64,000 bases of DNA from an uncultured Succinivibrionaceae bacterium (GCA_944389865.1 CALXNX010000002.1:1674-65673), one strand, 5' to 3'; numbered from the stretch's first letter, positions 15,947-36,366 are shown. A program made the numbers and translations. The notes: generated by a model from the sequence alone, not told the origin.

Positions 15947-18604
15947 ATGCAGAGCAGTGCGCTTAAATTCCTGCTGCCAGCCGCCTTGGTTTTGAGCCTG
16001 CAGGCGGCAGCGCAGCCGCAGAGTGCAGGGCAGCCGGCGCTCAAGCCGGTGCCGGGTGAGCTGGCCGCCGCCGCAGCAGAATCTGAGGATAATGATGAAC
16101 TGCAGCCGCTCTTTGCGGCCGCCTTAAATCCACAGGCTCAGACCGCGGCTCTGCAGCAGCAGTTTAAAGTCTCAGGCACGCTTCTGCCCGCAGCTTCTGA
16201 TCCGCAGCTGCAGCTGGTACCGCTTAAATATTTAGACGCTCTGCTCCAAGACGATGCGCGGCATAACGGCGGGCTGGTCTTTCCCTTTTTAGTCTTTGCC
16301 GGCGGCGCGGGCAGCGATCATTTAGATGCCTGCAGCCGGATTGAGACTGACGGGCGCAGCGCGCAGCTTGCCGCTTTAGAACAGCGCAGCGCGCAGCAGG
16401 AGGAAGATGATGCAGTGCAGCTTGGCCTTGAAGATCTGGAAGAGGCGGGTCTTGCCTGGCTCTATCTGCAGCCCGAGCTTGCTGCGCAGGGGCTGTCGCT
16501 TAATACCGGTGCGCTGCCCCGGCAGGGCTTGTCCTTAGATCTCAAAGCAGTGTCCATGCGCACTCTGCTGCAGAATCTGGCTTTTTACAGTCATGTGGAC
16601 GACCAGGGCTTCAGGCTGCCGGCCACGCCCTTTGATCAGCACATCTACAGCCGCTTCACCGAGCGCATGATCAATGGCGATAAGCTCTCTGCTTTAGGCC
16701 AGGGCTGCTCTTTTGCGCATGAGGAAAACTGCGGGCTTTATTTTACCGGTGCGCATGTCAGCGCGGTGCTTAAAGATGCCGGCGTCAGTTCCCCCTTCTA
16801 CATCAAGGATGATTTGTACGGCATTCCGCTGCGCTTTGATGAGCACGGGCAGCCGCAGCTCATTCTGCGCGCTGCGCTGTCCTCGGATTGGAATTACGTC
16901 AATTACGGCAATTTAATGGAGCTGGAGCTGGCGGTGCTGCAGGATCTGGGCTTTAACGTCAATCCGCGCCGGCATTACGGACGCTCGATTTATACCTTCG
17001 GAACCAGGGAAGAGCCCTTAAGACAGCAGCTGAGCTTTGCTTACGGGGACATTAACCATGCAGGCGACTATACTCTGCGCCCCAACAGCGCTCCTCTGGC
17101 GGTAGGTCTGCACTTATACGGCTCCTATAATGACATCTTAGCCGGCGGCACCGTCACTTCATCCGGTATCGGCTCCATCGGCGTGCGCGCAGACGGCTCA
17201 TACAATCGCCTGACCCTGCCTTTTCAGTCCTACGTGCGGGTGACAGGACCGCGCAGCATGGCAGCGGCGCTTACCAACGGCCATGACAATGTGCTGCAGA
17301 TAGACGGCGTCTTAAGCGCGCCGGCAGCTGACGGCATTGCCCTAAGCGCCGATTACGGCTCGAATATCTACTCGGACTTAACTGAGGCGCAGGGCTCGTG
17401 GCAGCGCTCGCGCTCTATTCCGGCTGCAGCCGGCGATCCGGCGGCAGCTTTGCCGCTGCTGCCGCCCTTAGAGGGGCCCCTTGCTCAGAAGATCAACATC
17501 TCCGGGCGATTGGAGGGCGGTCAGGCTGCGATCTATGCTGCGCCCGGCGCCTATGTGGGTGAAATCAATTTAACCGGGCGGGCGCAGATCTACGGGAATA
17601 TAGAGATTGCCTGGCATCCGCAGCCGCTGACGGATGATCTGGATGATGCACAGAAGTCGCGCCGGCCGCTGCCGCTCAATCTGCATGCGCCCACTGCTCA
17701 CGGCGCGGCTGCGGGGAATTTTTACGGCAGGCTGCCGCATAAGTCCGCTTGCTTTATCGGCACGCAGCTGCATCTGCCTGACGGAGTCAAGCCGGAGACT
17801 TTGACCACCAGGCTTAATTTAGGCATCAGCAAGGTCGCGGCAGCCGCCTCCGGACCTTCCGAACCTGCAGGCGATCCGCGCGCCAACATCCTTATAAACG
17901 GCGATGTGCAGGGGCCTGCATTGGAGATTAATCAGCCCGGCGGGCGGGCGCAAATCAGCGGTGCGCTGCAGGCGCGCAGCCTCACGGTCCGGCATGGTTT
18001 AATGCGTCTTAATCTGCCGGCAGGTGAGCAGGGCAGACTGCAGCAGCTGCAGCTGGGCGCGCGCGGCGTTTTAGATCTGCTCAACGGCAGGGCGGATACG
18101 CTGATTATTGACCGTGCCGCGATCTCGCGTACGGCCGCGGTGCGTGTCGATGCAGCCCCTGATGGGACTATCATGGATCAGCTGATCATTACTCATGACG
18201 CACAGTCAAGCTCGGGATATCTGACCTTAGAGCCGGGCGTGTCCTTTGATGCTTTAAAGCGGCTGTCCGCTGATCCGCGCCAATTCTTAAGCTTTATGAC
18301 CACATTTTCCTCCAGCGCTAATTATCTGTATAAGGATTTAGATATCTTTGTGGCCTTTCCAAACCAGATCTGGCTGCAGAACGGTACCTACGGGCGCGAG
18401 ACGCGCTGCAGCGCCCGCGGCTGCCGGGCTGGGAATTTTGTCAAAGCCTACGCACAGGGACATGCAGAGCTGCCGTCCTGGCGCTATGCCTTAAGCATCG
18501 GCGGTCTGGCTGCCTTAGTCTTAGGCACTGTGCTTTACTTTAAGCTTGCGCAGTACTTCAGCCGCCGCCGGATGCGCAGGCAGGCAAAAGCTCAGCAAGA
18601 GTGA
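15947..18604 (+). CDS. Large secreted or surface protein of unknown function (885 aa): signal peptide, beta-helix-like Gly-rich middle, C-terminal TM helix plus Arg-rich tail
   Basis: The start lies 4 nt after the ldt stop. The signal peptide is MQSSALKFLLPAALVLSLQAAAQP. The middle carries repeated G-x-I/V-x-G strand-like patterns. The last 40 aa read SWRYALSIGGLAALVLGTVLYFKLAQYFSRRRMRRQAKAQQE. I recognise no catalytic motif. Confidence 0.7.
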   Translation: MQSSALKFLLPAALVLSLQAAAQPQSAGQPALKPVPGELAAAAAESEDNDELQPLFAAALNPQAQTAALQQQFKVSGTLLPAASDPQLQLVPLKYLDALLQDDARHNGGLVFPFLVFAGGAGSDHLDACSRIETDGRSAQLAALEQRSAQQEEDDAVQLGLEDLEEAGLAWLYLQPELAAQGLSLNTGALPRQGLSLDLKAVSMRTLLQNLAFYSHVDDQGFRLPATPFDQHIYSRFTERMINGDKLSALGQGCSFAHEENCGLYFTGAHVSAVLKDAGVSSPFYIKDDLYGIPLRFDEHGQPQLILRAALSSDWNYVNYGNLMELELAVLQDLGFNVNPRRHYGRSIYTFGTREEPLRQQLSFAYGDINHAGDYTLRPNSAPLAVGLHLYGSYNDILAGGTVTSSGIGSIGVRADGSYNRLTLPFQSYVRVTGPRSMAAALTNGHDNVLQIDGVLSAPAADGIALSADYGSNIYSDLTEAQGSWQRSRSIPAAAGDPAAALPLLPPLEGPLAQKINISGRLEGGQAAIYAAPGAYVGEINLTGRAQIYGNIEIAWHPQPLTDDLDDAQKSRRPLPLNLHAPTAHGAAAGNFYGRLPHKSACFIGTQLHLPDGVKPETLTTRLNLGISKVAAAASGPSEPAGDPRANILINGDVQGPALEINQPGGRAQISGALQARSLTVRHGLMRLNLPAGEQGRLQQLQLGARGVLDLLNGRADTLIIDRAAISRTAAVRVDAAPDGTIMDQLIITHDAQSSSGYLTLEPGVSFDALKRLSADPRQFLSFMTTFSSSANYLYKDLDIFVAFPNQIWLQNGTYGRETRCSARGCRAGNFVKAYAQGHAELPSWRYALSIGGLAALVLGTVLYFKLAQYFSRRRMRRQAKAQQE

Positions 18605-18693: not shown

Positions 18694-21600
18694 CTATTGG
18701 ATCTGCGCCTGCATGGGGGCAGCAGCCACCGCACTCAACGGTATTGCGGCATTTTCCTGCAGCTTATCTATAGTTGTTAAGAAAGACTGCAGCATCCCGG
18801 GCGCAGCTTCATCAAAGGTCTGAGCAAAAGCTGCTACAAACGGCGGCTCGTTCAATGCATTTCTTTCCAGAATGCCGTTTTTGACGATATACTCAATCAC
18901 CATATTGATGAAGCGCGACTGCAGCGGATTGAGCTGGTAGCTGCGCAGAAATTCAGCAAACAGCTCTTTGGCTGCCTGCTGGCTTAAGCCTGCAGTCCTG
19001 CGGATCAGCACGCCGACGTTCTGTCCTTTAAAAGCCTGCAGATACTCTTCCTTAGAGCCCAGATCCCGCCAGACGATAAGCTCCAAGTGAGCGATATCGC
19101 TGTCAGACAGCGGCTGGTTGTTGTGCAGCTTGCTGATCACGCCTTCATTCAGATGTTCAAGGATGTAATCCTTAAAACGTTGTTCGTAGGACTCAAAGTT
19201 TTCATCGGGGTATTTTTTAATCCCGTCCGAATCATACTCTTTAACTTCAAGCTGGTCGGTGAAATCTACAATTTTATAAAACTCAGGATCTGATGTAATA
19301 AAAAAGCACAAGTCCCGCAGATGTACTCTGATCTGCTCAAGCTGCGTTAAGTTAAGCTCTTTAAGAAAGTTTGCACTTAAAATGCAGTCAATCCACTTGC
19401 GCTGCCTTCCGATATCCGGGATCTCATCTTGTAATTTCCGCAGAGCTTTTGCGATAGCTTGAAGGCGCTTGTATAACATCGTCAGCAGTCCGCGATCCTT
19501 ATTATTGGAGCTTATAAAATACTCTAAGGAATACAGCAGATAATCAAAGCGCCGAGCCCGAATGTCATCCTTAAAATCAGCAGGAATGATCGCTCCCAAT
19601 TCTTTTGAGGCATGCTCAATGATCTCTGAGGTAAGGTTTTCATAGGCTTTAGGCTGCTTAAATTCTCGCACCGCCTGGGGGTGGTTCTGCGCCTGGAAGC
19701 TGTTCTCTGGGATAGCGCCGACTTTAGCTGCCAGATCAGAAATAGTCTTTTCAGCATAAGCCTGATAATCCTCCTGATGTTCAGACTGCTGCAGGCTGGC
19801 AAGCAGTTTCAGTCTGAGCTCGAAGGTAAGATGCTCCAGTGATTTGATCGCTTTAGTAGCGCGTCCCTGTGGATTGGTGTTGAAGTACTCAAAGTTGCCG
19901 CAGGCATCGATAATCAGGAAATGATCCTTGTCCTTTCCGTCAATCAGTCCCGGGCATTTGCGCGTGCCGCGGCCAATCATCTGCCAGAACTTGGCATAAC
20001 TGTAAACCGGCTTGTAAAACACCAGATTTAGGCATTCCGGCACATCGATGCCGGTATCGAGCATATCCACTGAGACTGCTATCTGCGGCATTTTAGACGG
20101 GTCTTTAAACTGGTCTATCAGGTTTTCACAGTAGCTGATCTGATTGTCGATCACCTTGCAGAATTCATTGCCCAGATACGGGTACTGCTGCAGGAAAACA
20201 TCGCGGATCACTTCAGCATGGCGGTGACTGCGTGCAAAGATGATTGTTTTGCCTATTTTATCGCCGTTATCGATTTTAAGACCGTTAGTCATCAGCTGAT
20301 CTAAAATCTGCTTAATTGTGTCCTGATTGAACAGCCAGTTATCGATAGCTCCGCTGGAGATCTCGGTGATCATGCTGCCATTTTCATTTGTAAGATCGGC
20401 AAAAGTCTCCTCCCACATTTCTTTTTCAGCCTCGGACAGATCGGCATACTTAATGCCGCTGCGCTGAAATCCGGTATTGAGCTTCAAGGTATGGAAGTCA
20501 ACTAAAACTTTGTCTTCTACTGCTTTTTTAAGCGGGTAATAGTAGGTAGGATTATCTTTGTCCTGATTAAATACTTTGTAGGTATTGATGTCGATGTCAT
20601 CCTTCGGGGTGGCAGTAAGGCCTACTAAGTAGGAGTCGAAATAATCGAAGATCTCGCGGTACTTGTTGTAAATCGACCGATGCGCCTCATCACAGACAAT
20701 AAGATTGAAGTGCCCCGAAGAGAACAAACGGCTGCCGTCCTCATTGCGGTTTTCATCAATGGTCCCGATCATGGTCTGATAAGTAGAGAACACAATGCGG
20801 GCACCCGGAGATCGGTCTTCAGGCTTGTCAGCACAGAGATTTGCCAGCGGGAAAGACTTCAGCTGCATTTTAGCCGCGCTGAAGGCCTGCGACACCAAGG
20901 CCTTGCGATCTGCCAAAAAGAGCACATTTTTAACCCAGCCCTTTTCACAGAGCACCTTGATTAGATTAAGCACAGTTAAAGTCTTGCCGCTGCCGGTTGC
21001 CATCACCAGCAGAGCTTTGCGGTATCCCTTACTGAAGCGCTCACAGACAGCATTAACAGCTTCAATCTGATAATAGCGGCAGAGCGGATCGAGGTTCAGA
21101 TCCTGCAGCTTCTGGCGATGACTGTAGTTATAGTGCAGGGTCTGCAGATCGCTTTTGGTGTAGAAGGACGATACCCGACGTTCATTGCCGTATTCAATTA
21201 AGATGATTTCATTGCCGTTAGTCAGGAAGACCGCAGGCTTGCGGCCGTACTTCTTTTCAAGGCACTCAGCATAGAGCATGGCCTGATGGCGGCCGACGGA
21301 CGGATCTGCGAAGAACTTTTTAGCTTCAATGACGGCAAGCGGAGTACCGTCGTTATCGAACATTACGTAATCTGCATAACCGATGCCGGCAGCGTTAGGC
21401 ATGCCGGAAACTTCATATTCAGTTAGGCAGTCAGAGCCGATTTTCCACCCGGCATCCTGCAGTCTTGAATCAATAAAGCGTCTGCGGGTTTCCTCTTCAG
21501 AAATATCGGTTTTAGGCGCCTGATACTTAGAGGCATGCTGTTCTCTGCGCTTAGTGAGTTCTTCAGCCAGAGTTTCCGGCACCGCTTTTTTTGCAGTCGC

Positions 21601-22251
21601 CGGTAAAGCTGACTGCGGCTGAGATATGCTGACTTTTGAATTATTGCTCTTAGAAGATGCTTTAAGCTGTTTTTGCGCTGCATTTGCATCGGCATCCGGC
21701 TTTGCCTGCACGGCTGCAGCTGATACTGCAGGAGCAGAGTGCTGTACCGGCTGTTTTGCTGCTGTCGGCTGAACCGCTGACTGTGGTCTTGAGGCTGCAG
21801 TTACGCCTGATCTCGGATTTAAAACTAGATCTTTATGAAAACGCCTGAAGGCCTGCCCGCTGCCGTAGATCTGATCAATCCAGTCCATGTACATGAACAG
21901 TGAATTTAAAGTAAATACAGCATCGCCAATGGTGAATTTGGTCGGATTGTGGGCGGCCTCGTTGCCTGCCTTACGGATGAAAAACAGGTGATTGGAGATG
22001 TTTTGGCCGATTAGCTGCCTGAAGTGGTAGTTTGAAGTAAGTTCATAGAAGCTGACACGATAGGGATCAGGCTGAATCCTGCGCAGTGAGTTATCAGCTG
22101 TATACAGCCATTTGGTGGCAGATTCAGCTGCAGAGCGACATCCCAGAATTGCGCCGGTAGGAAACTGCACTGCTGTGCTTTCTGCTTGGCAGGCTAGGTT
22201 AGCAAAGGCAGCGAAGTTAGGCTGCTTTAAAAGAAAGTCAAAATTGCCCAT
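18694..22251 (-). CDS. hsdR: Type I restriction enzyme R subunit, with an N-terminal DUF4145-like domain and an EcoEI-R-type C-terminal domain
   Basis: The PD-(D/E)xK-like nuclease region is GYADYVMFDNDGTPLAVIEAKK. The helicase motifs are LLVMATGSGKTLT (Walker A), LIVCDEAHRS (DEAH) and QMIGRGTR (motif VI). It is co-oriented with the adjacent hsdS and hsdM. Confidence 0.92.
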   Translation of the reverse strand: MGNFDFLLKQPNFAAFANLACQAESTAVQFPTGAILGCRSAAESATKWLYTADNSLRRIQPDPYRVSFYELTSNYHFRQLIGQNISNHLFFIRKAGNEAAHNPTKFTIGDAVFTLNSLFMYMDWIDQIYGSGQAFRRFHKDLVLNPRSGVTAASRPQSAVQPTAAKQPVQHSAPAVSAAAVQAKPDADANAAQKQLKASSKSNNSKVSISQPQSALPATAKKAVPETLAEELTKRREQHASKYQAPKTDISEEETRRRFIDSRLQDAGWKIGSDCLTEYEVSGMPNAAGIGYADYVMFDNDGTPLAVIEAKKFFADPSVGRHQAMLYAECLEKKYGRKPAVFLTNGNEIILIEYGNERRVSSFYTKSDLQTLHYNYSHRQKLQDLNLDPLCRYYQIEAVNAVCERFSKGYRKALLVMATGSGKTLTVLNLIKVLCEKGWVKNVLFLADRKALVSQAFSAAKMQLKSFPLANLCADKPEDRSPGARIVFSTYQTMIGTIDENRNEDGSRLFSSGHFNLIVCDEAHRSIYNKYREIFDYFDSYLVGLTATPKDDIDINTYKVFNQDKDNPTYYYPLKKAVEDKVLVDFHTLKLNTGFQRSGIKYADLSEAEKEMWEETFADLTNENGSMITEISSGAIDNWLFNQDTIKQILDQLMTNGLKIDNGDKIGKTIIFARSHRHAEVIRDVFLQQYPYLGNEFCKVIDNQISYCENLIDQFKDPSKMPQIAVSVDMLDTGIDVPECLNLVFYKPVYSYAKFWQMIGRGTRKCPGLIDGKDKDHFLIIDACGNFEYFNTNPQGRATKAIKSLEHLTFELRLKLLASLQQSEHQEDYQAYAEKTISDLAAKVGAIPENSFQAQNHPQAVREFKQPKAYENLTSEIIEHASKELGAIIPADFKDDIRARRFDYLLYSLEYFISSNNKDRGLLTMLYKRLQAIAKALRKLQDEIPDIGRQRKWIDCILSANFLKELNLTQLEQIRVHLRDLCFFITSDPEFYKIVDFTDQLEVKEYDSDGIKKYPDENFESYEQRFKDYILEHLNEGVISKLHNNQPLSDSDIAHLELIVWRDLGSKEEYLQAFKGQNVGVLIRRTAGLSQQAAKELFAEFLRSYQLNPLQSRFINMVIEYIVKNGILERNALNEPPFVAAFAQTFDEAAPGMLQSFLTTIDKLQENAAIPLSAVAAAPMQAQIQ

Positions 22252-22281
22252 AAAGTGACCTCGAAAACTTACTGTTATAGC

Positions 22282-23469
22282 CTACTCCAATATTTTGAGG
22301 ATTTGCTCAATGTTAGCTTTTAGTTTGTCGATATGTTTGATAATAACAGAATAATCATCTTGTAAATTAAGAGGAGGAATGGGAATTTGTGTTGAGCCTA
22401 TTTTTGCTTTATTTAAAGTTGATCCTTTAACTGCGGAAGAAGACACTTGTGACCACTTAAAGTAGGATAGAAAAGTTGACAGATATTGATTGCTTATATT
22501 CTGGTTTTTGGGTAAAAAAGCCATTATAGCTTCATTAGTAAATATTTCTTCATTAGTTATGATGGTTTTTCCTATTGATAACTTAAAGCTCATCAAAACT
22601 GTATTACTAGGAACAGGTTTGATTCCAGATTCATTAACTGCAATGTCAGAAATTTTTTCTTTTGTGTTAATACAGCAAGCATTAGCGTTATTTAGATCCG
22701 AAATAGATAACCATTTATGATGAGGTTTATCCCAATATAATTTATTTGCTCTAGATGGTGTTTTACCCATTTGTAAATTAAATAAATTAGAAATCTTATC
22801 TGTTGGCCATTTTTTACTATTTGCATTAATATCACCAAACAACTCGCTAAATATCGTATTTTTAAGTAATTCAACTTTTTCTAGTATTTGCTGAGCTATA
22901 AGTTTTAATTTGTCGATATGTTTGATAATAACAGAATAATCATCTTGTAAATTAAGAGGAGGAATGGGAATTTGTGTTGAGCCTATTTTTGCTTTATTTA
23001 AAGTTGATCCTTTAACTGCGGAAGAAGACACTTGTGACCACTTAAAGTAGGATAGAAAAGTTGACAGATATTGATTGCTTATATTCTGGTTTTTGGGTAA
23101 AAAAGCCATTATAGCTTCATTAGTAAATATTTCTTCATTAGTTATGATGGTTTTTCCTATTGATAACTTAAAGCTCATCAAAACTGTATTACTAGGAACA
23201 GGTTTGATTCCAGATTCATTAACTGCAATGTCAGAAATTTTTTCTTTTGTGTTAATACAGCAAGCATTAGCGTTATTTAGATCCGAAATAGATAACCATT
23301 TATGATGAGGTTTATCCCAATATAATTTATTTGCTCTAGATGGTGTTTTACCCATTTGTAAATTAAATAAATTAGAAATCTTATCTGTTGGCCATTTCTT
23401 ACTATTTGCATTAATATCACCAAACAACTCGCTAAATATGGATTTGACTAAATTTTTGCTATCGCTCAT
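22282..23469 (-). CDS. hsdS: Type I R-M specificity subunit (hsdS2) whose two target-recognition domains are almost identical
   Basis: The fold pattern is typical of HsdS (MGKTPSR..., conserved helices ending DKLK). Residues about 11-189 and about 206-384 are identical in the translation. It lies directly upstream of hsdR. Confidence 0.9.
   Translation of the reverse strand: MSDSKNLVKSIFSELFGDINANSKKWPTDKISNLFNLQMGKTPSRANKLYWDKPHHKWLSISDLNNANACCINTKEKISDIAVNESGIKPVPSNTVLMSFKLSIGKTIITNEEIFTNEAIMAFLPKNQNISNQYLSTFLSYFKWSQVSSSAVKGSTLNKAKIGSTQIPIPPLNLQDDYSVIIKHIDKLKLIAQQILEKVELLKNTIFSELFGDINANSKKWPTDKISNLFNLQMGKTPSRANKLYWDKPHHKWLSISDLNNANACCINTKEKISDIAVNESGIKPVPSNTVLMSFKLSIGKTIITNEEIFTNEAIMAFLPKNQNISNQYLSTFLSYFKWSQVSSSAVKGSTLNKAKIGSTQIPIPPLNLQDDYSVIIKHIDKLKANIEQILKILE
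22317..23439 (-). repeat. Near-perfect tandem direct duplication, period 585 bp (copy A about 22317-22854, copy B about 22902-23439)
   Basis: Identical 76-aa antisense ORFs at 22490..22720 and 23075..23305 fix the 585-bp offset. In my manual alignment of the ends I saw only two mismatches: g/a near 22323 versus 22908, and t/c at about 22814 versus 23399. Confidence 0.9.
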
Positions 23470-23481
23470 TGCAGTATTCCC

Positions 23482-24486
23482 CTAGGCAATGAATTTTCTA
23501 TGTGATTGTTTTACATTGGACTGATTTACCATTGCGTATTGCATGGTGGTATCAATTTGTGAGTGACCCAGCAATTGCTGTAATTGTTCAATTGGCATGC
23601 CTTTATCAATAGCCTTGGTAGCCAAGGTCCTTCTGAATTTGTGAGGGTGAGCTTTATTGATACCCAACCTTTTACCAAGGTTTCTAATCCTGATTTCAAC
23701 CCCGCTGATATTAAGTCGGCTGCATTTCTTTTGATTAAGTGAGATAAACAGGGCAGGGTTGTCGTCTGTCCTAGACTTTAAGTAATTGCTTAAGTGAATT
23801 TTAGTCCGCGCATCAAAATAAACTGGGCGCTGTTTGTTGCCTTTGCCTAAAACGACGCATTCGCGATTTTCAAAGTCAATATCTTCACGGTTAAGGTTTA
23901 CTAGCTCACCTACGCGCATACCTGTTGAAGCGAGAAGATCAATCATAGCTAAATCGCGCAAATTGCTGCACTCATCGCGCATTTTTTCTAAGGATTCATC
24001 ACTGTAGGTTTCTTTTACAACCTTCTGCTTTCTGATCTTATGGATGCGTCTGACCGGACTTTTAATAATGAAGTCTTCATCCTCAAGCCAAGCAAAAAAG
24101 GTTGACAGGATCCGACGTATATTGTCAATGTTTACCTTGGTGCAGGAATGTGTTTGTTCGTAATTACTTAAATAGGCACGCAGATCATCGGTAGTTGCTA
24201 AAGTAACCTTTTTACTGTTGCTATCTAAAAAGGTATTTAATGTGTAGCGGTAGTACTTTAAAGTACGTGGGCTGCAGCCTTCTACTTGCTTTGCATCTAA
24301 GAATTTATTTAAAAGGCTTTCATTAGAGTCATCATTGGTTCTGGTTGGTTCATTGACATCTATAGAATAAATTTTTCGGTTATGTAGTTTTTCCTGCAAA
24401 ACCTGACTAAGGATTTGTGACTGCTCTGCATTTAAGCAGCCAGACATAGCTTCTTGCACTTGATTGATAAACAGGGAGGTATTCAT
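23482..24486 (-). CDS. Tyrosine site-specific recombinase (phage integrase/XerD-like) embedded between two hsdS genes
   Basis: The catalytic pattern is present in order: STGMRVGEL (Arg), GKGNKQR (Lys), HPHKFRRT (His-x-x-Arg), LGHS (His), TMQYA (Tyr). An N-terminal SAM-like core-binding domain is present. Confidence 0.9.
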   Translation of the reverse strand: MNTSLFINQVQEAMSGCLNAEQSQILSQVLQEKLHNRKIYSIDVNEPTRTNDDSNESLLNKFLDAKQVEGCSPRTLKYYRYTLNTFLDSNSKKVTLATTDDLRAYLSNYEQTHSCTKVNIDNIRRILSTFFAWLEDEDFIIKSPVRRIHKIRKQKVVKETYSDESLEKMRDECSNLRDLAMIDLLASTGMRVGELVNLNREDIDFENRECVVLGKGNKQRPVYFDARTKIHLSNYLKSRTDDNPALFISLNQKKCSRLNISGVEIRIRNLGKRLGINKAHPHKFRRTLATKAIDKGMPIEQLQQLLGHSQIDTTMQYAMVNQSNVKQSHRKFIA

Positions 24487-24523
24487 AAACTTGCTCCATT
24501 AGTTGCTGTAGTTGTAAATTTTT

Positions 24524-25945
24524 TTAAGAAAACAATAAATTAATGAGCAAGTTTGAAATCTCAATAGTTTTAATCAAAATATATAGAAGTATTATATTTT
24601 GATTAAAACTATTGAAATTAAATTTTAGTTTGTCGAGTCTTTTAATAATATCAGCGAACTTATTTTGTAACAGAATAGGTGGTACCTTGATTTCTAAATT
24701 GCGTATTAATTCCTGACTTAAATTTTTTTGAACACCTCCTTTTAACTGAGATTGTAATATGTGTTCACTATTATTTAATGCATGGTATAGGTATATTGGA
24801 TTAAAAAGATTGCAAGGTAATATACAACATAAAGCCTGGTTAGTGGCTGCCTGTATTTTTAACAGACCTGCTTTTCCAGCAGTTCCTTTGCAGTACATTG
24901 CTACAACAACAGTGTTCTCAGGAACGAGTTTGGCTGATGAGTTTTTTAATCCTTCTTTAGTAATGTGTTTAAGTGCATGGTTTATATAGCCTTGGCTAAC
25001 TTCTGTGCTTGTTATCCATGGGATATTTCCATTTTCGTAATACTCTTTATGCGAAGTCGAAGGCGTTCCGCCAGAAACAGTATCAGTACATTCTGAGATT
25101 TTTTTTATTTGAAAATTATCACCATCAAAAAAATCATTGAATACAGTTTTTTGAATAATGCTAATTTTTTTACTAATCTGCTGAGCAATAAGTTTTAATT
25201 TGTCGCGCTGATTTACTATGTTTGCATATTTTAACTGCTTAGATTTATGTGGTACAGGAATTGTTAATTGTTTTAACAATTTGCTTCTAATGCCTATAAC
25301 AGTTGAACCTGATTTCTTTTGAAAAAGTTTTGATTGAAATTTTTTCGAAAGTAAAACATATTCTAAGAATGTTGAGTCTAATGATTCTTTATGAGGTTGT
25401 AATGTTATTATACGCTGTCCAACTCCAAATTTTGGTTTTAATTCTGCTATATTAGGAATTTTACAGACATTTCCTAAAGGAGCTTCAGTTGTAAACAAAA
25501 CATCTCCTATCTTAGGATAACCACGTTGCATAAACTTTTCATAAGTTTCAGGAGATATGAATTCTTGAGGCTCTGAAGTAAAGTGGTTGTTTTTAACGTT
25601 TTTGGCAGTAATCAGTCTGTAACCGAAATCTGATTTCTCAGGAGTCTTTCCTCTGTAATCAATAAATGTGCATACCTTTTCAAGAGTATAATAATTGTAG
25701 TTTCCATATCCAAACATCTCGTTAAATATGGATTTGACAATACGCTTGATTAAATATAATGTCCTATTATTTAGCTGATTTATATCAAAATAAAAGTTTT
25801 TTATTGAGTACTGTTGATTAAATGACATCATTGTCACCTGCTGGAGCAGATTACACTGAGCTTTTATATTTAGCGCAGTCAGTACGTCTATCTTTTTCAA
25901 GATGGGCGTTACTGATCTTTTTACTCGGGCAGTAAACATTGTCAA
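24524..25945 (-). CDS. hsdS: Type I R-M specificity subunit (hsdS1) with two different TRDs
   Basis: TRD1 contains IDYRGKTPEK...TTEAPLGNV. The central conserved region is RDKLKLIAQQISKK. TRD2 contains VSGGTPSTSH...NIPWIT. The C-terminal conserved region is LDKLK. The start is uncertain (25945, or Met-Met at about 25831), and the last roughly 30 codons read through a strong hairpin. Confidence 0.85.
   Translation of the reverse strand: MTMFTARVKRSVTPILKKIDVLTALNIKAQCNLLQQVTMMSFNQQYSIKNFYFDINQLNNRTLYLIKRIVKSIFNEMFGYGNYNYYTLEKVCTFIDYRGKTPEKSDFGYRLITAKNVKNNHFTSEPQEFISPETYEKFMQRGYPKIGDVLFTTEAPLGNVCKIPNIAELKPKFGVGQRIITLQPHKESLDSTFLEYVLLSKKFQSKLFQKKSGSTVIGIRSKLLKQLTIPVPHKSKQLKYANIVNQRDKLKLIAQQISKKISIIQKTVFNDFFDGDNFQIKKISECTDTVSGGTPSTSHKEYYENGNIPWITSTEVSQGYINHALKHITKEGLKNSSAKLVPENTVVVAMYCKGTAGKAGLLKIQAATNQALCCILPCNLFNPIYLYHALNNSEHILQSQLKGGVQKNLSQELIRNLEIKVPPILLQNKFADIIKRLDKLKFNFNSFNQNIILLYILIKTIEISNLLINLLFS
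24561..24615. repeat. Perfect inverted repeat: 20-bp arms, extendable to 23 bp, with a 9-nt centre
   Basis: tcaatagttttaatcaaaat (24561-24580) is the exact reverse complement of attttgattaaaactattga (24596-24615). Three further inner base pairs also match. It lies in the 3' tail of hsdS1, 75-130 bp upstream of the recombinase start. Confidence 0.9.
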
Positions 25946-25975
25946 GCATCCTTTAATTAATTTACATCGCAGAGC

Positions 25976-27508
25976 TTATTTGTCCTCTGATGCTTCAGAT
26001 GCTCTTGCTTCCTGCAGCATTTGCTGCAGTTTGGCAAACTCAGTCTGGAATTCAGCACTGAGTGTTGCAATTTCCTGCATTAATTCAGCGCTTGAAGGCA
26101 GATCTTCCTCTTCATAGACGATCTCTTTGTATTTATTGATGGATAGATCGTAGCCGTTGGCAATAATCTCATCTTTTGGAACTAAGAAGCTCTGCTCTGT
26201 ACGCTTGCGTTCTGCTTCTGCCTCTAAATGATTCCAGCGTTCAATAATGTCGGGCAGATTACTGTGATCAAGAGGCTGGCGCTTGTCATCGAGACTGAAG
26301 CCGTCAGACTGCATGTCGTAGAACCAAACATCTTCAGTGGCGGCATGATCGGTCTTGGTAAACACCAAGATAGAAGTAGAAACGCCGGCGTATGGTTTAA
26401 ATACGCCTGAAGGCATCGAAATTACTGCCTGCAGACGCTGGTTATCTACTAGCTCTTTACGGATGGAGAGGTGCGCCTTGGAGCTGCCGAAAAGCACGCC
26501 GTCAGGCACAATTACAGCTGCTCGTCCGCCAATCTTCAGTAGGCGCAGGAACTGCGCAATGAATAAAAGCTCCGTCTTGCTGGTATTAGTTACCCGCTTG
26601 AGCACTGGATCGGTAGTATCCTTATCCAGACTGCCTGTGAAGGGAGGATTGGCCAGCACAACTGAATAGCGCCCCTGATCCTTTTCCTTAAGCTGCTGCT
26701 GTTCGCTGTTTTCAGCAACGGTAAGGCCGTTTAAGTATTGAATGTTCGGATCTTCAATATTGTGCTGCATCAGATTCATAGCAGCAATTTCCAGCATGGT
26801 AGTATCAATATCGTAGCCGGTGAAAAGCTCGGTATTGTAATAGGCCATCTTTTCAGGCTCGAATATGAGATCCGGATTCTGCTCGCGAATATATTTGCCG
26901 GCTTCAATCAGGAATCCTGCAGTACCGCAGGCCGGATCGCAGATCCGATCTGAAATGCCGGGTTTTAACAGCTCCACCATCATGCGGATAATGTGGCGCG
27001 GAGTTCTGAACTGTCCTAAATTGCCCGAGGTGGACAGCTTGCTCAGCATGTACTCGTAGATATCGCCGCGAATGTCGCTGTCAGAGCCGTCTTCATTAAT
27101 GATGCCGTAAACCTCATTCATGGCCTCCATCACCGAGACCAGCTTTTGATCAGACGGGATCTCAAACTGAGCATTCTTCATGTAGCGGGCAAAGGCGCTC
27201 TTTTTGTTGGGATTGAGGTTTTTAATCAGCGGGAAGATGGTGTTCTCAACCGTATCCCGCAGAGTGCGAGGATCAGTGATCTTCAGGAGATTGTCCCAGC
27301 GCAGATCTTCATTGCCGTCAAAGATAGAAGTGTAGGGTGTATTGAGCAGTGCCGCGTTTTTGGCCTTGACGGTATCGTAGGCGCTGAGATCGTGAATAAA
27401 CATCAAATAGGTGATCTGCTCAATTACTTTGAGCGGGTTGCTGATGCCGCCTGAATAAAAGATATCCCACAGAGCGTCAACTTTATTCTTTAAGGTTCCG
27501 GTGATCAT
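25976..27508 (-). CDS. hsdM: Type I R-M N6-adenine DNA methyltransferase subunit
   Basis: It has an HsdM N-terminal domain. The AdoMet motif is DPACGTAGFL. The catalytic motif is VLANPPFTG (NPPF). Confidence 0.95.
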   Translation of the reverse strand: MITGTLKNKVDALWDIFYSGGISNPLKVIEQITYLMFIHDLSAYDTVKAKNAALLNTPYTSIFDGNEDLRWDNLLKITDPRTLRDTVENTIFPLIKNLNPNKKSAFARYMKNAQFEIPSDQKLVSVMEAMNEVYGIINEDGSDSDIRGDIYEYMLSKLSTSGNLGQFRTPRHIIRMMVELLKPGISDRICDPACGTAGFLIEAGKYIREQNPDLIFEPEKMAYYNTELFTGYDIDTTMLEIAAMNLMQHNIEDPNIQYLNGLTVAENSEQQQLKEKDQGRYSVVLANPPFTGSLDKDTTDPVLKRVTNTSKTELLFIAQFLRLLKIGGRAAVIVPDGVLFGSSKAHLSIRKELVDNQRLQAVISMPSGVFKPYAGVSTSILVFTKTDHAATEDVWFYDMQSDGFSLDDKRQPLDHSNLPDIIERWNHLEAEAERKRTEQSFLVPKDEIIANGYDLSINKYKEIVYEEEDLPSSAELMQEIATLSAEFQTEFAKLQQMLQEARASEASEDK

Positions 27509-28005
27509 ATAAATATTCCGTCAGCTGCAGTCGTCCCGCAGTCTGCTTTAAGGTTTAAGTCATGAAGTTCGAGGTCATCTTATGGTGCAGCGCTTTTGGT
27601 GTCAAACAAAATCGGGGCTGAAAAAATATTTTTTTAACACCCGGCATTATTCCATTTGAAGGAATAATAGAACGTATAATCAGTCTTTTTGACGCCTGTA
27701 TGTTCTCTAAAAAACGACATTAAGGCGGATTTTAAAGCCCTTTAAATCTGAGGTTTTGACTGCTATACTATGAACATCTTCTGATAGACCGGCCGGGCGT
27801 AAATTTATCGCCCCTGCGACAAATTCAGCATGATTGCTGTAACCGGATGGCACGGCAGCTAATAGGAGGCTATCAGAAGCACGCTTTTCCAGCCTTTTCT
27901 CTCTAATGCGTTTTTCTTTAGTCTCAAAGGTTTTTATGCCCTTTCGATTTACGCTGTAAGCAGGACTTCAGCTCTGTGCAGCCTTGAACGAAGGGCAGAG
28001 GCCGT

Positions 28006-36015: not shown

Positions 36016-36091
36016 AGGGGTATAGCCAAGTGGTAAGGCAACGGGTTTTGATCCCGTCATTACCCTGGTTCGAGTCCAGGTACCCCTGCCA
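36016..36091 (+). tRNA. tRNA-Gln (anticodon UUG)
   Basis: It folds by hand as a cloverleaf. The acceptor stem is aggggta/tacccct, the anticodon arm is acggg-TTTTGAT-cccgt, and the T-arm is cctgg-ttcgagt-ccagg. CCA is encoded. It is close to E. coli glnU/W. Confidence 0.9.
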
Positions 36092-36107
36092 TCTAGGGAA
36101 AATTTAT

Positions 36108-36184
36108 TGGGGTATAGCCAAGTTGGTAAGGCAGCGGATTCTGATTCCGCCATTTCCAAGGTTCGAGTCCTTGTACCCCAGCCA
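36108..36184 (+). tRNA. tRNA-Gln (anticodon CUG)
   Basis: The acceptor stem is tggggta/tacccca, the anticodon arm is gcgga-TTCTGAT-tccgc, and the T-loop is ttcgagt. CCA is encoded. Confidence 0.9.
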
Positions 36185-36190
36185 CAGCGT

Positions 36191-36267
36191 GGCTACGTAG
36201 CTCAGTTGGTCAGAGCGCGGCACTCATAATGCTGAGGTCACTGGTTCAATTCCAGTCGTAGCTACCA
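36191..36267 (+). tRNA. tRNA-Met, elongator (anticodon CAU)
   Basis: The acceptor stem ggctacg and the D-arm gctcagttggtcagagc match E. coli metT/metU. The anticodon loop is CTCATAA. It lacks initiator features (no C1:A72 mismatch, no GGG/CCC anticodon stem). Confidence 0.88.
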
Positions 36268-36289
36268 ATCCTCTTCATTTCCTTCCCAT

Positions 36290-36366
36290 TGGGGTATAGC
36301 CAAGTTGGTAAGGCAGCGGATTCTGATTCCGCCATTTCCAAGGTTCGAGTCCTTGTACCCCAGCCA
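36290..36366 (+). tRNA. tRNA-Gln (anticodon CUG), second identical copy
   Basis: Its sequence is identical to 36108-36184 on reading. Confidence 0.9.

Follow-up and report, generated by a model that had tools for sequence, protein, structure and literature searches.

Does a tyrosine recombinase gene that lies between two complete, co-oriented hsdS genes switch the specificity of a Type I restriction-modification (R-M) system and, if so, by what route? The question is raised by an island on the minus strand of a 64,000-nt stretch of DNA (the window; coordinates count from its first letter) from an uncultured gut Succinivibrionaceae bacterium. In a preliminary description the locus had been read as hsdM-hsdS1-recombinase-hsdS2-hsdR, with every gene on the minus strand and gaps of 12-37 nt. 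The open reading frames (ORFs) were exactly as claimed and Pfam agreed; by ORF coordinates, the gaps between hsdR, hsdS2, the recombinase gene, hsdS1 and hsdM were 30, 12, 37 and 30 nt, respectively. The hsdM gene (25976..27508) encodes a methyltransferase subunit of 510 aa (N6_Mtase, E 7e-66, and HsdM_N) and hsdR (18694..22251) a restriction/translocase subunit of 1185 aa (ResIII, Helicase_C, EcoEI_R_C and DUF4145). HsdM, HsdS and HsdR, the Type I R-M set, were all identified with Pfam and NCBIfam models; the top models for HsdR were of the EcoAI/EcoEI type, with scores under the NCBIfam equivalog cutoffs. DUF4145 was located at the HsdR N-terminus (E 6e-7), and a weaker DUF4145 was seen in HsdR of Firmicutes tvr-type loci.

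The island is probably a horizontally acquired, phase-variable Type I R-M operon of the pneumococcal tvr/SpnIV type, in which target recognition domains (TRDs) are shuffled by excision and re-integration. The preliminary description had also suggested a direct-repeat mechanism of this kind, and had regarded it as undescribed. The evidence favours excision and re-integration, but the mechanism was not new, since it has been published for tvr/SpnIV (PMC6265443). In that system, TvrR-dependent shuffling of TRDs occurs when a circle with tvrATR and one or two TRDs is excised and re-integrated (Kwun 2018, PMC6265443). It is guided by two types of co-oriented repeat, a midpoint repeat (MPR) of ~18 bp and a tail-end repeat of ~70 bp, which share a core of ~11 bp, and it gives rise to 2+2 and 3+1 arrangements in which the hsdM-adjacent TRD is fixed (PMC6265443).

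The TvrR-family recombinase and its co-oriented repeats

The recombinase gene (23482..24486, minus strand) encodes a protein of 334 aa with Pfam Phage_integrase and SAM_4 matches. Over 325 aa it was 62% identical (E 5e-150) to TvrR from a Streptococcus pneumoniae locus (L014), one of the pneumococcal loci retrieved by means of the Rcirc primer (supplement to Kwun et al. 2018). By this identity it belongs to the TvrR clade ("clade 2") of hsdS-associated recombinases, which covers 10 phyla and includes two proteobacterial loci in REBASE (Huang 2020, PMC7672463). The catalytic residues R191, K215, H282, R285, H308 and Y317 were invariant in an 11-sequence family alignment that included TvrR. The NCBIfam match was recomb_XerA_Arch (249 bits compared to a cutoff of 220), and scores against the integron-integrase models were far under their cutoffs. 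Homologues numbered in the thousands at ~65% identity, mainly in gut Firmicutes.

The similarity to the pneumococcal system was not confined to the recombinase. In the pneumococcal locus hsdM, hsdS, tvrA, tvrT, tvrR, hsdS' and hsdR lie on one strand, and both systems have co-oriented hsdM, hsdS, recombinase, hsdS and hsdR genes, with the recombinase gene between the S genes. HsdM was 50% identical to SpnIV HsdM and HsdR was 37% identical to the HsdR of the tvr locus, with an MGNF start in both; the recombinase was therefore the best-conserved product of the operon. The G+C content of the S-recombinase-S block was 27-40%, compared to ~43-53% for hsdM and hsdR and ~57% for the genome; the low values relative to the genome indicated that the island is foreign DNA.

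All of the repeats found in the island were on the minus strand. MPR1 (25710..25738; GTCAAATCCATATTTAACGAGATGTTTGG) is a midpoint-type repeat at the 5' edge of the first variable module, TRD Y, and MPR2 (23420..23448; GTCAAATCCATATTTAGCGAGTTGTTTGG) lies at the 5' edge of hsdS2; MPR3 (22835..22863) is a degenerate midpoint repeat, the 3' 20 nt of which are identical to MPR2. A core-type repeat, TCGACAAAYTAAAA, was present in four co-oriented copies of 14-30 nt: core A (25176..25205; CGACAAATTAAAACTTATTGCTCAGCAGAT), which codes for DKLKLIAQQI and forms the 3' edge of TRD Y; core B (24623..24636; TCGACAAACTAAAA), at the 3' edge of TRD Z; core C (22886..22915; CGACAAATTAAAACTTATAGCTCAGCAAAT); and core D (22318..22331; TCGACAAACTAAAA), at the 3' edge of the last TRD. 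The copies formed pairs at similar distances: MPR1 and MPR2 (27/29 nt identical) and cores A and C (28/30 nt) were each 2290 nt apart, and cores B and D (14/14 nt) were 2305 nt apart. Across the 64 kb the 29-mer of the MPR had precisely two copies, each on the minus strand, against a chance expectation of 0. When compared to the pneumococcal MPR, GTCAAATCCCGATTTAACGAGATGTTT, the MPR of the window matched at 24/27 bases, and TCGACAAAYTAAAA was the counterpart of the pneumococcal tail-end core, GTCGACAAATCACAATT; a DKLK/DKS-coding core is shared by the two systems, but no 70-bp tail-end repeat was found in the window.

Inverted repeats were also sought. The repeat search of the locus and the window returned just chance-level inverted pairs (71-73%), and tblastn detected no further copy of S1, S2 or the recombinase on either strand of the window. 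Together with the 29-mer count, these results upheld the earlier statement that the locus has no inverted hsdS copy.

The hsdS1 gene (24524..25945) encodes 473 aa from a TTG start, with two Methylase_S stretches in Pfam; gene callers on other contigs placed the start a few codons further downstream. It contains TRD Y (25206..25709) in slot 1 and TRD Z (24650..25120, approximate limits) in slot 2, the latter always linked to a hairpin and the recombinase gene. In an AlphaFold2 model the TRDs and the central and C-terminal helices (residues ~81-450) were modelled with pLDDT, the AlphaFold2 confidence score, of ~80-98, whereas the N-terminal 80 residues fell below ~50. These include an N-terminal extension of ~70 aa (25739..25945, from the translation) encoded 5' of the first repeat, MPR1, and kept in a sister species; it could be the remnant of a lost first module. 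Part of the extension resembles an HsdS conserved-region helix (ILKKIDVLTALNIKAQ compared to IIKHIDKLKLIAQQIL). The idea that HsdS1 is circularly permuted, with the extension replacing the C-terminal helix, was unsupported, given the low confidence of residues 1-80 and a C-terminal helix that was reasonably confident to ~450. The C-terminal tail of HsdS1, past the DKLK codons, is encoded by the palindrome of the hairpin; in tvr, by contrast, the odd C-terminal tail is on the downstream S gene.

The hsdS2 gene (22282..23469; 395 aa; Methylase_S, E 2.5e-37, in two stretches) consists of TRD W, a central region and TRD W again. It is a half-gene duplicated in tandem with a period of 585 nt, and the two TRD W cores differed at 1 base in ~530 nt. 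The duplication junction fell in MPR3, and the same structure was present in an independent assembly (L025). From its sequence, this W-W protein is predicted to have a symmetric target. Judged by sequence, either HsdS1, with its well-folded model, or HsdS2, with its intact ORF, could be the active subunit.

Just upstream of the recombinase gene is a hairpin (24557..24619, minus strand) with a 27-bp stem, a 9-nt loop and arms that are 96% complementary. The 171-nt hairpin region folded as RNA at -41.8 kcal/mol (z -8.7), and 0/200 shuffled sequences were equally stable. In the sister species (L116) the 27-bp stem was preserved through changes on both arms. A second predicted stem (24487..24554), in which AAACUUGCUCAUUA pairs with UAAUGGAGCAAGUUU, would cover the ribosome-binding site of the recombinase gene; it appeared in both the minimum-free-energy and the centroid structures, and the predicted fold of L116 likewise covered this site, with other partner bases. 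The rate of tvr switching is held down by TvrT and by a hairpin attenuator before tvrR (PMC6265443). By analogy of position, the hairpin of the window is a candidate transcriptional attenuator of the recombinase gene. It has no adjacent U-tract and was not called as a terminator in a promoter and terminator scan, in which the counts for the region were at chance level. The best sigma-70-like match was at 27577-27605, upstream of hsdM, and a single 10-of-12 promoter-like site was present upstream of that gene. The palindrome was also considered as a crossover site and rejected: the breakpoints described below were all located at MPRs or cores, and linkage of the hairpin to TRD Z and the recombinase gene was never broken.

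TRD arrangements in conspecific contigs and Firmicutes relatives

Contigs of the same species were obtained from other samples; their hsdM, hsdR and flanking sequences were 99.7-100% identical to the window. The species was present in samples ERZ24773389, ERZ28614559, ERZ24773394, ERZ28614349, ERR4096502, ERR4398708 and ERZ13616301. Their arrangements are given here as slots 1 and 2 (the hsdS1 TRDs) and slots 3 and 4 (the hsdS2 TRDs), with a slash for the recombinase gene between them. The window and L025 read Y Z / W W, and the fragments L026, L027 and L032 were consistent with this order. L001 read X Z / X .., L028 read V Z / X U, with a stop in its V, and L114 and L115 read V Z / V Z. In slot 1, L001 had X in place of Y, and both L028 and L114 had V, between flanks that were 99.7-99.8% identical. 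TRD Z was found in every conspecific contig (98.6-100% identity). TRD X occupied slot 1 in L001 and slot 3 in both L001 and L028, at 96.7% identity.

All of the breakpoints coincided with MPR1 (25710), core A (25205), MPR2 (~23416-23419), core C/MPR3 or core D (~22331). The slot-1 swap in L001, L028 and L114 began at MPR1, with core A as its other breakpoint. In L028 and L114 the TRD changed at MPR2, and in L028 and L029 a different TRD, U, was joined at core D. Contig ends also fell at or near these places: L001, L002 and L026 ended at or just past MPR2, L027 ended ~95 nt into the repeated TRD W, and L030, L031 and L033 began one base before identity to the window starts inside core D. In L114 and L115, V-Z was present on both sides of the recombinase gene in two copies that were 100% identical over 1107 nt; the downstream copy was joined to the hsdS2 leader and the hsdS2 tail, and the junction of Z with the hsdS2 tail (P0243/L114) fell at core B. 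In L028 (4416-5108) the slot-1 TRD V carries an in-frame stop (LPPVE*Q) and hsdS2 (X-U) is intact, whereas V is intact in L114 and L115.

In the sister species the island occupied the same site between lnt and hsdM, with nucleotide identities to the window of 88% for hsdM, 91% for hsdR and 85% for the recombinase gene. Its slot 1 held a W-like TRD and its slot 2 a Y-like TRD, the latter a homologue of TRD Y (84% nucleotide identity) in position 2 of L116. Recent exchange of TRDs across phyla was considered and rejected, as the other fetched loci contained no close DNA match and protein identities were 23-42%.

A gut Firmicutes relative had permuted modules of its own. An identical recombinase (P0034) was carried on the same Mob_Pre-bearing backbone in eight gut metagenomes (L003-L010, Ruminococcus-like). 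The half-hsdS modules of these loci, a, b, c and d, were 99.8-100% identical and all forward, and they occurred in six orders: ab/cd, acb/d, ac/bd, ad/cb, acd/b and ad/d. Module a was next to hsdM in every order. These loci resemble tvr in pattern, but their modules also switch between N- and C-terminal slots. As in the window, the TvrA/TvrT pair was absent from the gut Firmicutes relatives. The mobilisable element of L003-L010 carries Mob_Pre, AAA_25 and HTH, and in its 3+1 forms half-size S ORFs of 191-206 aa were called.

The orientation of the S genes was then surveyed, as the preliminary description had proposed. Eighty close metagenomic relatives were fetched and S genes were scored within 4 kb; two loci had no S gene, and among the 78 that did, 52 had co-oriented S genes only and 26 had an inverted half-S adjoining the recombinase gene (seven of the 26 calls were checked by Pfam). 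Close homologues of the recombinase are, therefore, not always located between inverted copies. For clade 2, inversion or excision has been proposed, depending on repeat orientation, and its loci were reported to be mainly of mixed orientation, with direct-repeat loci a small proportion (PMC7672463); among the close relatives surveyed here, in contrast, 52 of 78 had co-oriented S genes only. In a neighbour-joining tree of the recombinases, which carried no support values, the mixed-orientation loci formed one clade, and the window grouped with the direct-only loci and TvrR.

Two layouts were seen in the mixed-orientation clade (L054-L111, for example L071 compared to L072): M, half-S(+), half-S(-), recombinase, full S; and M, full S, recombinase, half-S(+), half-S(-). 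They may be alternative states of one inversion and translocation switch. No hsdR was seen within the flanks of these layouts. In maps based on phmmer, which could contain artefacts, an HsdR-like ORF (972 aa) lay between hsdS and the recombinase gene in L076 and L105, and an R-recombinase-S unit appeared twice in L076.

Proposed excision and re-integration, and its alternatives

The tvr/SpnIV reading draws on the homology of the operon, the architecture of its repeats, the intact catalytic residues of its recombinase and the variation among contigs in which TRDs are present and where, with the breakpoints located on the repeats. Under this reading each TRD segment would be a cassette, with an MPR (coding for VKSIFxExFG) on its 5' side and a DKLK-coding core on its 3' side, all in the same direction. 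The TvrR-family recombinase would recombine the members of each like pair (MPR1 and MPR2, cores A and C, cores B and D), and each event would excise a circle of ~2.3 kb with the recombinase gene and one or two TRDs. A circle that re-entered at a different repeat, or in a sister chromosome, would then move, swap or duplicate TRDs among the four slots. Entry at a repeat of the other class would exchange TRDs of S1 with those of S2 (for example, Y Z / W W to W Z / Y W), and entry into a sister chromosome would produce duplications such as W-W or V-Z twice. The altered HsdS protein or proteins would change the sequences that are methylated and restricted. The conserved hairpin and the ribosome-binding-site stem probably keep expression of the recombinase, and hence the switching rate, low. 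Beyond what was observed, we infer that the window recombinase would be the catalyst, that circles would be the intermediates and that switching may take place within clones. For circles and within-clone shuffling the evidence is indirect: the recurrence of TRDs in different slots, the contig breaks at the repeats and the cycle-like structure of L114 and L115.

Several observations weigh against this reading. The TvrAT module is absent from the window and was treated as an accessory feature; in pneumococci the TvrAT pair is regulatory and dispensable for the stability of the locus, and loci with the core only excise poorly (Kwun 2018, PMC6265443). The repeats of the window are short, at 29 nt (27/29 identical), 30 nt (28/30) and 14 nt, and of the ~70-bp tail-end repeat, which makes excision efficient in pneumococci, the core alone is present. 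The TRD sets of the strains were mostly non-overlapping, and only X, V and Z recurred, so that some TRDs must also have been brought in by homologous recombination. The differences between contigs fit within-clone switching and fixed strain differences alike. L114 and L115 may represent the path of an assembler through a graph cycle and not a real molecule, in which case circle and empty-site junctions may have been present instead of a true duplication. In a short-read contig, perfect identity over 1107 nt is compatible with both a true duplication and a graph cycle, and these contigs were accordingly not taken as proof of a circle; either way, recombination at the repeats is needed.

The island also departs from tvr/SpnIV in other respects, although the 2+2 and 3+1 module arrangements of that system were seen in relatives of the window and both loci have a hairpin immediately 5' of the recombinase gene. 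The island lacks the Phd/Doc-like TvrA/TvrT pair, with only 37 nt between hsdS1 and the recombinase gene, and its host is a gammaproteobacterium. An MPR also precedes the first TRD, so that slot 1 varies (Y, X or V), and a TRD can be duplicated (W-W, V-Z twice) and is free to occupy an N- or a C-terminal slot. It is possible, and we put it forward only tentatively, that every TRD in this lineage and in many gut Firmicutes relatives is a free half-hsdS cassette (MPR-TRD-core) that can enter any slot, N- or C-terminal and on either side of the recombinase gene, and be copied, such that the locus would be a small cassette array with symmetric (W-W) specificities as well and possibly two S subunits active together. 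By analogy only, integron cassettes are similar, in that a tyrosine recombinase excises circles and re-inserts them at cognate sites, with reordering and duplication; unlike those of integrons, the sites of the window lie inside coding sequence with the frame kept, and no attC-like folded site is found at the cassette ends.

The locus could instead be a static system with two S subunits, in which an asymmetric Y-Z and a symmetric W-W specificity are present at once and compete for HsdM and HsdR, the recombinase is a relic or is active on very rare occasions, and strains have diversified as TRDs were imported horizontally and by homologous recombination at conserved regions. Both hsdS ORFs are intact, with their own start codons and tight gaps, the S1 model is well folded, and the largely different TRD sets of conspecific contigs are what import would yield, with the conserved regions as possible homology arms. 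This explanation is nevertheless unlikely. A relic would not be expected to be the best-conserved product of its operon with all catalytic residues in place, nor does a static system account for the same TRDs (X, V-Z) in different slots, a near-perfect W duplication with its junction in an MPR, or identical modules permuted in a Firmicutes relative. In pneumococcal 2+2 forms, moreover, methylation is driven by the upstream hsdS only. Joint expression of two S subunits is compatible with shuffling, and only the "static" part of this explanation is truly a rival.

Movement of a smaller unit is a further alternative, which we consider highly unlikely. The S-recombinase-S block would have been inserted into, or have replaced, a resident hsdS gene, and the recombinase would serve mainly to move the block between genomes. 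The block is lower in G+C than hsdM, hsdR and the genome, the N-terminal extension of hsdS1 resembles a leftover conserved-region helix, and relatives ride mobilisable elements with Mob_Pre. TRDs, however, are commonly A+T-rich. HsdM and HsdR are homologous to those of pneumococcal and Ruminococcus-like tvr-type loci, which argues that the operon travels whole, and in the sister species, too, the island is complete and occupies this site; in the ~90 Firmicutes loci sampled there was no near-identical TRD or recombinase DNA, the recombinase gene being at ~70% nucleotide identity. That the locus is an inversion shufflon like ivr/SpnD39III, caught in one assembled state with its co-orientation a product of that state or an artefact, is barely credible, even though 26 of the 78 close relatives have an inverted half-hsdS beside the recombinase gene. 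Neither the locus nor the window contains inverted repeats, all independent assemblies of the species and its sister species were co-oriented, and in the neighbour-joining tree, which had no support values, the mixed-orientation loci fell in a recombinase clade separate from that of the window. The pneumococcal ivr/cod locus (SpnD39III; PsrA/CreX), Mycoplasma pulmonis hsd (HvsR) and the Bacteroides fragilis invertons are likewise Type I systems with spare hsdS sequences and a site-specific recombinase that changes specificity, but they invert DNA between inverted repeats and have recombinases of other clades.

Host setting and significance

The island is flanked by lnt on one side and by an ORF of 885 aa on the other. 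The gene order miaB-phoH-ybeY-corC-lnt is proteobacterial, and the closest named relatives of MiaB were from Anaerobiospirillum, Succinatimonas and Succinivibrio (63-70% identity); the host was therefore assigned as an uncultured gut Succinivibrionaceae bacterium. The 885-aa ORF (15947-18604, plus strand), which had no Pfam match, is convergent with hsdR and adjoins it in all conspecific contigs; its counterpart in the sister species is 886 aa. Elsewhere in the window, four tRNA genes, Gln(ttg), Gln(ctg), Met(cat) and Gln(ctg), are clustered at 36016-36366 on the plus strand.

To date, experiments have demonstrated the switching of Type I specificity by excision and re-integration in pneumococci only. 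The locus described here indicates that the direct-repeat mechanism is probably present in a gut gammaproteobacterium too, and with its relatives it suggests a wide occurrence of this mechanism on mobilisable elements in gut Firmicutes. Surveys of the gut microbiome have sought inverted repeats beside invertases (PMC7672463, PMC11741434) and would overlook such loci. For annotation, co-oriented hsdS-recombinase-hsdS operons are best treated as candidate tvr-type switches, not as a new mechanism, and the recombinase should not be called a prophage integrase. If it is true that direct-only loci dominate the TvrR clade in gut metagenomes, as 52 of the 78 loci here would suggest, then epigenetic phase variation would commonly proceed by excision and re-integration.

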